This document shows positions 33,001-36,000 of a DNA stretch of 64,000 nt, one piece after another. This stretch comes from a virus: the IMG/VR virus record IMGVR_UViG_2718218091_000001; one strand, 5' to 3'. Every line of letters begins with the position of its first letter. Positions within the stretch are counted from its first letter, which is position 1. Made by a program: the position numbers.

Positions 33001-36000
33001 CCGGGTTTTCTTGCCGGTGATGGGGTTCTTGTGGGTCAGGGTCTTGAAGCCCAGGTACTCCTTGCGGAAGTGCTCCTTCCACACGGCCAGCGGGTAGTGC
33101 TGCCCGCCCGGGGTGGCCTGCTGCGCGATGCTCTTGAGCACCACGCCGTGGTAGAAGCGGCGCTGCCGGTCGGTCTTGGCGTCCTCATGCAGGCGCACCT
33201 CAACATGCAACCGGTGCCCAGCGGCCCACATGCTCTTGCACCAGGGCGCAAGCACGTTCTTGAAGTGCTGGCCAGCCTGAACGGGCTCGTTCCAAGTGGC
33301 TTGCAGGGCAAGGTCAGCCACGGCGCACCTCCACCCGTACCAACCCGCCCACCTCGTCGGCCTTGCTGATCGTCAGGCTCCAGCGCTTGTCATCCACTCC
33401 CAGCACATCGGCCAGGCCATCAAGGCCCGACTTCATGCGCGCCAAGCAGTTGTCCAGGTCATGCGCGCGGCGGTTCGGTGGCACGAAAACAAGCGTCAGG
33501 TGCAGTTTTTCTGCATCCAGACGCTGGGCGCCCTGCTCTTTCGCGGTCCAGGCGCACGCGGCGCGGTAGGCCTTCTTGGCGCGGGCCAGCTTGCTCCAGT
33601 GAACTCTGGAGTTCGGGCTGAGGATCGTTGGGGGCCATGGAAGAATAAAGTTCACAGCGTGCACCCTTCATGAATAGCTCTTTTCCGCTCCAGGTACGCG
33701 GCGTGAGCTTCCTCTGCAGTGGGGAAAGCCCCAATCGTTTGCGGCCGTCCTTTGAACCAAATTCGAGCGGAATAGCTGCTTGCACGGTTTTTCCTCACCC
33801 CAAGTAGCCCTGAGCGGTTGTCGATTCGCGCTTTCCGCTGGTTTTCCATATTGATGCCAGCATCAACATCACGAAGATTTGCCATGCGATCGTCCAACGG
33901 GTTCCCGTTCACATGATCAATAACGCCTCTTGGCCATTCGCCCGTCATGTACAACCATGCAAGTCGTGAGGCAAACACAGCCTTTCCACGGAAGTAGATT
34001 CGCCTTCTCCCGTGACACGTAAAGCCTGCGACGGTCCCGCTTTTTGCTCGCTGACCGATAGTGATCCGGCGCAAAAACACCCCGGTTTCCGGGTCGTACA
34101 CATACAACCGGCGCACCTCCTTCGCATCCGATAGGCCCGTTTCAGGGTTCGGAATCAACCAACCCTTTTTCGAGCGGGCAGCGTTCGGGCTCAGGTCGGC
34201 CGGTGGCCACGGCAGGGTGAAGTGCAGCGGCTCAACCATGGCGTCGTATCCAGTCCAGGTAGGCAGACATCGCCGTGAAGCCCAGGCCGATGTGCTTGTT
34301 GCGGATGCCCCGGATTCCGCAGTGCCAGATGCCGCGGATCTTGATGATGCGGGGCTTCATGCGGCAGCCTTTCGCAGCCGCAGCGCCCGGCCGCCCAGGT
34401 AGTGCGATGCCCGCGCCTCGTCGCCTTGCGCAATCTCCGACAAAAAGCAGTCGTCGCACAAATCCGAAAACTCGTCAGCGGCCAAACCGATGTCGGCCTG
34501 GATCTCCGCGATCTGCTCGTCGGAGTACGGTCCGTGGTGCACGGGCGAATCACACAGCTCGCACAGGCCCTGCTTCGCTTTTTCAATGGCGTTCATCGTC
34601 TTTTCCTCGTTTCCTTTTCCGGCTCCGGCGCCAGCTGCCACTCCGGCGCCTTTGCCATCCGCCTGATTTCCACCTCGGGCAACCCCAGCGCCATCGCTTG
34701 CTGCAATGCCGTACGGCACCGGGCCTGCGTGTTCGTCGCGCCCAGGCGCAGGGTTCGCTGCAGGTACTGGATGCGCCTGGCCGCGCAGTGCAGGCACCCG
34801 TCCGCGAACATTCGGTACTGGTGCGGCGCCTCGCGCGCTTCGTCGCAGCACTCGCACATTCATCGCGCCCCCAGTGCAAAAAACGGGTTGGAATGGTCCT
34901 TCCAGGATGTACCCCGCTTGATGTTGTTGATGACCGACTTGTTCACCCCGTAGCGGGCAGCAAGCACGGGGCCGGATTCGCTGCTCAGTCGGATCTCGCG
35001 GGCCTTCTCCATGTCCAGCTTTGCAGATTCGGCGCGCTTGAAGGCGGCGATCTTTGCGGCACGGGCCACCCCGGAAAACGCACCTTTGGCCGCTGCTGCC
35101 TGGGAAACAGCGGCAGTCGTGCTGGCCTTCAGGTGGGCCGGGTTCACGCACAGCTTTTCACCGCAGGTGGTCACGACTGGCTGCCGCGGCATGGCCGGTG
35201 TGCCCACAAAGTCCAGCACCAGCCGGCGCACCAGACGGCAACCACAGCCGCGCACCTTGACGATGGGGTATCCGCCGTCGCTGGTCGCGTTCTTCCACAG
35301 CCAGCAGTCGGCCACCTCGTGGCAGCGGTCTTTGATCGTTTCGAGGGTGATGGTTGGCGCATGCGCGGTCATGCAGCACCCCCTGCCATAACCGGCTCGC
35401 CCAGCACGCGTAGCGCGGCATTGACGACCTCTTGCGAATGCTTTACCCCAGCTTGCACGTCATCGAGGATGTTCATCGCGTCAACCTTCTGCTGCGCCAG
35501 CTGCTTGCGCTGCTCTGTGTCCTCGGCTTGACGGATCGCCTCGCGGGCGCGCTCCTCGCGCTGCCTGGCAGCGCTGTTTGCCAGCGTCTCGCGCAGGACG
35601 GCCAGACGCTCGCGCACCTCGGGCGGCGCATCCTTGATGGGCACCACATTGCCCGTCAGCAGAGCAACCGGGTTGAACACCGGGCTGAATGCCAGCGCAG
35701 GCGCGTGCTTGCTCGCTTCCTGGGCCGACAGGTAGCCCAGGCTCACGGCACGCTCTACCGCTGGGGCGCGCAGCTCCTGGTCCCAGCCCACCGATACCGT
35801 CACGGCGGGCGTGCGGCGTTCTTCGCGGGCCGTGCGGCACAGGCGCTCGTAGGAGGAAATGAAAGCCATGCGTGCGCCCACCATGTCGCCCCGGGCGCCC
35901 AGGTCGCGCGCCACACCCCAGGCTTCCTGCATTTCACTGGTCCAGACGATGGTGTTGCGCTCATCGAGGGCGGTCACGGCAATGGCCCATGCCTCATTCG

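Follow-up and report, generated by a model that had tools for sequence, protein, structure and literature searches.

A putative HNH-AP2 homing endonuclease cassette inside phage rusA genes

The rusA gene of a virus sequence catalogued as IMG/VR record IMGVR_UViG_2718218091_000001 (the window, that is, the whole stretch of 64,000 nucleotides (nt) analysed here) is associated with an endonuclease gene and a second rusA start, and the described systems closest to this arrangement are the WHO elements of Torulaspora and Lachancea yeasts. It was demonstrated that WHO elements home into FBA1 and replace its 3′ end with a resistant version, that the displaced native end stays beyond the nuclease gene as a fragment providing a homology arm, and that cleavage takes place (Coughlan et al. 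2020, PMC7282813). Like WHO, the rusA element involves neither intron nor intein, its unit consists of a nuclease gene plus a divergent end of the target gene (which in WHO confers resistance), the displaced end is kept and the target gene is chimeric. However, the end exchanged by WHO is the 3′ end of FBA1, within a eukaryotic nucleus, whereas the end concerned here is the 5′ end of phage rusA; the WHO nuclease is an intein-derived LAGLIDADG protein with a zinc finger, whereas the present one is HNH-AP2; and the WHO fragment is unexpressed, whereas here it appears to be read as the N-terminus and start of the nuclease. No homology of the nuclease to the intein-derived LAGLIDADG and zinc finger architecture of WHO/HO was found and, since the endonuclease is of the HNH-AP2 type, the element would be an analogue of WHO/HO by mechanism and not a member of that family.

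In fungal mitochondria, mobile endonuclease open reading frames (ORFs) such as that of Allomyces macrogynus atp6 and the rps3-LAGLIDADG fusions of Ophiostomatales (cited in PMC4019555, PMC12308204) likewise bring in, as far as these citing papers outline them, a foreign copy of a gene end and form an in-frame fusion with the coding sequence of the host. According to the same outlines, they differ in residing in organelle genomes, in involving C-terminal ends and in encoding GIY-YIG or LAGLIDADG enzymes, and there translation passes from the host gene into the endonuclease, whereas in the present case it is the endonuclease that would be read out from the start of the host gene. In phages, the published endonucleases within genes are associated with split genes, namely Aeh1 nrdA (mobE), T4 39/60 (mobA) and phage 25 gene 43 (PMC2988022). 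The free-standing HNH endonucleases of T4-like phages resemble the present element in being promoter-less cassettes with overlapping or coupled expression, placed in conserved parts of DNA-metabolism genes (PMC2988022), but their target is split into two polypeptides that reassemble, whereas here there is no split and a spare 5′ end restores one full-length gene.

Neither a published phage case of end replacement nor a published link between rusA and a homing endonuclease was found, in a literature coverage that was incomplete and does not prove absence. Compared with the yeast and fungal 3′ designs, what is new here is that a 5′ end is replaced, in a prophage, in association with an HNH-AP2 enzyme, and that the displaced fragment is apparently reused as the enzyme start. 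We consider it probable (roughly 0.8) that this element is a free-standing HNH-AP2 homing endonuclease cassette residing inside phage rusA genes.

Occupied and uninterrupted rusA loci

All features of the locus lie on the minus strand (Table 1). The initial annotation had described an HNH-AP2 ORF followed by a rusA gene with a similar beginning and an overlapping start, and both frames were recovered: the HNH ORF (34239..33652) opens with MVEPLHFTLPWPPADLSPNA and the RusA-like ORF (33664..33314, 116 amino acids) opens with MHAVNFILPWPPTILSPNSR. The two overlap by 13 nt if rusA starts at 33664, and by 4 nt (GTGA) across the endonuclease stop if it starts at the next in-frame GTG (33655), which is preceded by a Shine-Dalgarno-like GAAGGG at a spacing of 8 nt. 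The similarity between the beginning of the endonuclease ORF, hereafter the stub, and the replacement 5′ end of rusA extends over 15 codons, in which 31 of 45 nt are identical (4 codons identical, 6 with synonymous and 5 with non-synonymous differences).

The identity of the target gene was examined by profile comparisons. It matches PHROG 34 (RusA-like) with an E value (E) of 3.5e-23. Compared singly with Pfam PF05866 (RusA), the window protein had no hit at E up to 10 and so stayed below the threshold of that model; of 13 close relatives, five matched it (best E 2.8e-4), and a profile built from the 13 relatives aligned Escherichia coli RusA (1Q8R) over its full length (E 3.9e-7), with the DLDN catalytic motif of the profile matching that of RusA. 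The invariant catalytic acidic residues D66, D68 and D89 (numbered from GTG 33655) and the LPWP motif lie in one intact RusA ORF. Additionally, the pattern LPWP...LSPN.R.H is invariant in 13/13 RusA genes of the subfamily, and therefore the resemblance between the stub and the rusA start is not due to chance. The insertion point falls in the most conserved coding stretch of rusA (LSPN-x-R-x-HW). The targets of homing endonucleases typically sit in conserved coding stretches.

An alignment with rusA loci lacking the HNH gene had been proposed as a check, and two such loci were obtained: L319, a 62-kilobase (kb) viral contig from IMG/VR found in a RusA-based scan, and L204, a Burkholderiaceae contig of a metagenome-assembled genome found in a scan of genome contigs. 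In both, an uninterrupted rusA directly follows a homologue of the small ORF that precedes the stub in the window, the flanks are collinear and the insert is absent. The left flank and stub match L319 at 96.3% identity over 191 nt, the blastn match ending exactly at 34181, and homology to L319 resumes at 33601. The stub (34239..34181) is identical at 57 of 59 nt to the uninterrupted rusA 5′ end of L319, with the same protein sequence, and at 52 of 57 nt to that of L204, while the replacement 5′ end (18 codons) shares 33 of 54 nt (61%) with L319 and 36 of 54 with L204. From CACTGG onward, the rest of rusA (33601..33314) agrees again at 261 of 288 nt (90.6%) and 249 of 288 nt, respectively, and downstream of rusA the window and L204 are 77% identical at the nt level. 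Since the stub and the rusA body match both uninterrupted genes and the replacement end diverges from them, the native rusA 5′ end is the copy that lies upstream, and the one downstream is of foreign origin. This bears out the earlier proposal that the endonuclease ORF kept the original start of rusA for itself.

The insert of ~580 base pairs (bp) thus separates codon 19/20 of rusA, immediately behind LSPN, from codon 22. From the cassette's own rusA start, the locus still encodes a full-length RusA that retains every conserved motif. The guanine-cytosine content (GC) falls from 0.68 in the stub to 0.55 in the endonuclease body and 0.54 in the replacement 5′ end and returns to 0.66 in the rest of rusA, and the corresponding values at third codon positions (GC3) are 0.90, 0.57, 0.62 and 0.81, with the GC3 of the stub resembling that of the host phage. 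Judged by its composition, the insert is foreign DNA of lower GC (0.55 versus ~0.66). Together with the uninterrupted loci and a second, diverged member of the family described below, this composition upholds the earlier statement that the element was inserted in the rusA 5′ region, and we hold the insertion architecture with high confidence. An intron- or intein-borne endonuclease was rejected, as the initial annotation had also concluded: an Rfam scan of 32800..34700 returned zero matches at E up to 1, introns included, the nuclease ORF has its own stop and rusA has its own start.

The earlier description of a recoded 5′ end held only in part. A replacement end is indeed supplied, but it corresponds to the end of a divergent, lower-GC allele, with 5 amino-acid changes in 15 codons, and not to a synonymous rewrite. 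Its AGA arginine codon is otherwise found only in low-GC rusA alleles. No uninterrupted rusA with a replacement-type 5′ end, that is, a donor allele, was present among 85 unique alleles. The insert was found in 0 of ~108 IMG/VR rusA loci retrieved with RusA queries, which indicates low occupancy.

The endonuclease and its subfamily

The endonuclease matches Pfam HNH_3 with 42.7 bits (cut-off 24.8) and PHROG 99 (HNH endonuclease) with E 1.2e-47, the latter match covering the protein only from residue 38 onward. The His-Me finger residues D108, H109, N121 and N130 are invariant over 60 homologues, and the closest solved nuclease domain is that of I-HmuI (PDB 1U3E; profile E 1.6e-4, Foldseek probability 1.0). 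The AP2 domain was recognised by fold, with Foldseek matches to 1GCC (template modelling score 0.72 on the target), 7ET5 and 5WX9, and by profile, with the AP2 of WRI1 (E 0.0039); PF00847 is also precomputed for many homologues of the endonuclease. An AlphaFold model based on a 60-sequence alignment reached a mean predicted local distance difference test (pLDDT) score of 86, with stub residues 1-20 near 50 and predicted to be disordered, and with a confident fold from near residue 31. With its HNH motif residues invariant and a predicted fold combining I-HmuI and AP2, the enzyme looks intact. I-HmuI is an intron-encoded HNH nicking endonuclease of Bacillus phage SPO1. It differs from the present enzyme in its group I intron and its other DNA-binding modules, whereas here there is no intron and an AP2 domain is present.

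The closest homologues of the endonuclease form six protein clusters (P0001-P0006; 55-95% identity), whose N-termini consist of LPWP..LSPN, a linker of 1-6 residues and a conserved R-x-x-x-GWL. The linker differs in length by whole codons only, and the frame is open from the stub ATG in every cluster. The next relatives (P0007, P0009) begin near GWL and lack the stub. Among 1.84 billion representative proteins, the fusion subfamily corresponds to a single cluster at 50% identity, and the other HNH-AP2 proteins of that set match the profile only from about position 21-38.

Cluster P0006 is encoded on L103, a 7.1-kb metagenome contig from an unrelated phage with a background GC of ~50%, and its endonuclease is 56% identical to that of the window. 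Downstream of a DnaB gene, L103 shows the same layout, namely a stub and an endonuclease, joined by an ATGA overlap to a complete rusA that has an LPWPP..LSPN of its own, and the insertion lies at the same codon. The initial annotation had named the occurrence of homologous HNH proteins with the LPWPP N-terminus in unrelated contexts as an observation that would speak against it. No such occurrence was seen: the six clusters carry LPWP..LSPN and, in the one further context read, that of L103, the neighbour is again rusA.

It could be argued that the arrangement is a one-off mosaic junction: two phages would have recombined illegitimately, leaving a second copy of the rusA 5′ end, and the HNH gene would be an unrelated passenger that lacks specificity for rusA. 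Such an event would be compatible with the mosaic nature of phage early regions, with the presence of two other HNH genes within 3.3 kb and with the drop in identity to L319 beyond the segment that comprises the small ORF and rusA. However, it leaves unexplained why the same junction at the same codon accompanies a 56%-identical enzyme in the unrelated phage L103, and why the same N-terminus recurs in five further protein clusters and is absent elsewhere in the HNH-AP2 family. Therefore, this explanation is highly improbable, and a homing cassette residing in rusA is preferred.

Further members were sought in several collections. Against INPHARED, blastn with the 2.6-kb region returned nothing, and tblastn returned only HNH proteins of ≤45% identity without a stub. 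In GTDB, neither the 67 genomes of the genus nor the 401 genomes of the family contained a close homologue of the endonuclease, the window's own genome excepted. With the endonuclease alignment as query, no further fusion member appeared among the IMG/VR matches listed, nor was there any in GTDB. The INPHARED matches H7-H20, from Felixounavirus-like Salmonella and Escherichia phages, are HNH-AP2 homologues of ~38% identity over query residues 16-190 that sit under or beside a DNA polymerase annotation, and they may represent another in-gene or gene-adjacent insertion. In a separate observation, the uninterrupted rusA of contig L277 (L277:2498-2869), 76% identical to the L103 RusA, starts with ATGCACGC (MHAVV), and this start equals the rusA-frame reading of the conserved 3′ end of the endonuclease (..TGCACGCT..) in the window and in L103. 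Judging from this match, the L277 start may be either the footprint of a lost endonuclease or a coincidence.

The stub and the proposed mode of homing

The endonuclease ORF contains no ATG before codon 98 and, since its frame is also open in every cluster, it is suggested that the enzyme is translated from the rusA initiation region. No promoter-like site was found inside the cassette. Among the 11 endonuclease variants of at least 90% identity (P0001 and P0121-P0130), the most variable residues of the protein are stub positions 2 (V/F/S), 5 (L/Q) and 6 (H/I), found in five combinations, and elsewhere in the protein ~9% of sites differ. This variation fits the invasion of several rusA alleles, or recombination within the stub. 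According to the best reading of the alignments and of the model, the stub would be a passenger renewed from the functional rusA of the recipient at each invasion, and not a folded domain.

The following route can be proposed. The endonuclease would nick or cut an uninvaded rusA at or beside the LSPN-x-R-x-HW coding stretch, and, during co-infection or prophage induction, an invaded genome would serve as the template for mending the break. The stub would act as the left homology arm, the left end of the recipient pairing with the donor stub, in which the LSPN codons would supply a conserved CTGAGCCCGAAC-type stretch, and the rusA body would act as the right arm. The product would comprise a new stub, which is the recipient's own 5′ end left behind, the endonuclease and a chimeric rusA, whose divergent, cassette-derived 5′ end would make it a poor substrate. 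Five of the 9 nt just 3′ of the insertion point differ between the restored rusA and L204, and this cluster of changes could confer immunity on the restored gene, which would amount to the loss of the target site proposed in the initial annotation. Having neither a promoter nor an evident start codon of its own at the enzyme head, the endonuclease would be translated from the rusA initiation region, and rusA would in turn be translated by termination-reinitiation coupling.

Both the homing mechanism and the hijacking of the start codon are put forward with moderate confidence, on the basis of sequence comparisons. The chances are about even for the more specific proposal that a dedicated HNH-AP2 lineage homes into the most conserved codons of rusA by 5′ end replacement, that the recipient's start and first 19-20 codons become the obligatory translation start of the endonuclease, and that rusA is expressed by stop/start coupling.

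Several points weigh against the reading of the element as a homing endonuclease cassette in rusA. The candidate target site was deduced solely from the insertion point, and the genomic context of the subfamily was read for two members, the window and L103. The mismatches to L319 beyond the junction form no clear co-conversion gradient. The AGA codon of the replacement end was dismissed as a sign of recoding or selection for immunity, since AGA or AGG also occurs in low-GC rusA alleles that carry no insert. Two further points concern the stub itself, and each of them leads to a different explanation of how this fragment is used.

First, a strong internal Shine-Dalgarno motif, AAGGAGGT, lies 6 nt before a TTG at codon 45 and leaves room for an internal start. 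The endonuclease could then be made from this site, with the same insertion history, and the stub would be an untranslated dead remnant that is in frame by chance, so that no start would be hijacked. The stubless relatives P0007 and P0009, which start close to the GWL motif, and the lack of structure in the AlphaFold prediction for the stub would agree with such an arrangement. However, the frame stays open from the stub start in all seven sequence clusters despite a linker of 1-6 codons, initiation at TTG codon 45 would remove residues 36-44, including the invariant L36, D38, E41 and R44, and the first ATG comes no earlier than codon 98. An internal start is thus considered unlikely, and translation from the rusA start is retained as the preferred reading.

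Second, LPWP and LSPN of the stub do not vary among seven clusters, although the identity between their enzyme bodies is only 55-62%, which could mean that the peptide is functional in the enzyme. On this account, the RusA N-terminal peptide would be a selected part of the chimeric protein, for instance one that contacts RusA or junction DNA, and not a by-product of insertion. Against this, the stub encodes the same peptide as the native rusA 5′ end of the neighbouring lineage, shares 97% of its DNA sequence and has host-like GC3, which indicates recent capture and not inheritance together with the low-GC enzyme. The stub is also predicted to be disordered, one variant (P0132) has LSPK, and repeated fresh capture from functional rusA genes accounts equally well for the conservation. 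A selected role of the peptide is therefore judged quite improbable, and the stub is best regarded as a passenger that provides the start.

Coordinates, neighbouring genes and biological meaning

Table 1. Features of the rusA locus, with positions in the 64,000-nt window.
Feature	Position	Strand	Description
Small upstream ORF, 42 amino acids	34232..34360	-	Native left flank of rusA; TGA stop overlaps the stub ATG; 118/121 nt identical to L319 (34360..34240); homologous in L204
Stub	34181..34239	-	Native rusA start codon + 19 codons (through LSPN) + 2 nt
Endonuclease ORF, 195 amino acids	33652..34239	-	Stub, short linker, I-HmuI-like HNH domain, AP2 DNA-binding domain
Inserted cassette	33602..34180	-	Endonuclease body, overlapping stop/start, foreign replacement for rusA codons 1 to ~21
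Replacement rusA 5′ end	33602..33664	-	Part of the cassette; start GTG 33664 or, more likely, GTG 33655
Native remainder of rusA	33314..33601	-	From HW... to the stop; holds the catalytic DxD and DD motifs
ninB/orf-family recombination mediator	32824..33321	-	Native right flank; PHROG 72, E 1.7e-15

The two additional HNH genes mentioned above lie at 34860-35372 (-) and 32120-32827 (-) of the window (PHROG 1872/59; Pfam HNH PF01844). In contig L002, a different ORF of 151 amino acids follows ninB at the place where the window has an HNH protein of 235 amino acids, and in contig L003 a homologue of the window ORF 34593..34859 directly precedes rusA. The flanking HNH genes and these differences in L002 and L003 point to an abundance of homing endonuclease genes in the early region.

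The whole region, including the cassette, is present twice in the genome with 100% identity at a distance of 66,333 bp (G000:C1:4177765-4180365, which is window 32800-35400, and 4244098-4246698, which lies outside the window), and this suggests a tandemly duplicated prophage of ~66 kb. A pair of HNH paralogues 66,354 bp apart, one of them at window 61263-61733, are not identical, and one reads through a TGA.

Within the endonuclease ORF, a GC-rich hairpin followed by a T-run occurs at 34081-34093 (-), and was likened to the internal terminator of T4 mobE. Expression of T4 mobE is limited by an internal terminator. The number of terminator-like hairpins in the endonuclease ORF did not exceed the expectation from shuffled sequences and, at a frequency no greater than chance, a terminator role for the hairpin at 34081-34093 was rejected.

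If the proposed route is true, the element would need no promoter, ribosome-binding site, intron or intein of its own, and both of its homology arms would lie within one conserved gene, which would permit movement between otherwise unrelated mosaic phages. It would mean that a phage homing endonuclease, by bringing along a spare gene start, can enter a coding sequence with neither intron nor intein and leave the gene unsplit. Such a design would also account for 5′ ends that are chimeric and evolve fast, and for the odd, short extensions at the N-terminus of HNH proteins, both of which are misread by annotation pipelines. The conserved rusA stretch of ~30 bp represents a candidate recognition site and a putative new HNH-AP2 specificity. 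In bacterial viruses, this locus would be a natural and testable instance of a cut-and-rescue drive, and the end-replacement design may be widespread in phages.

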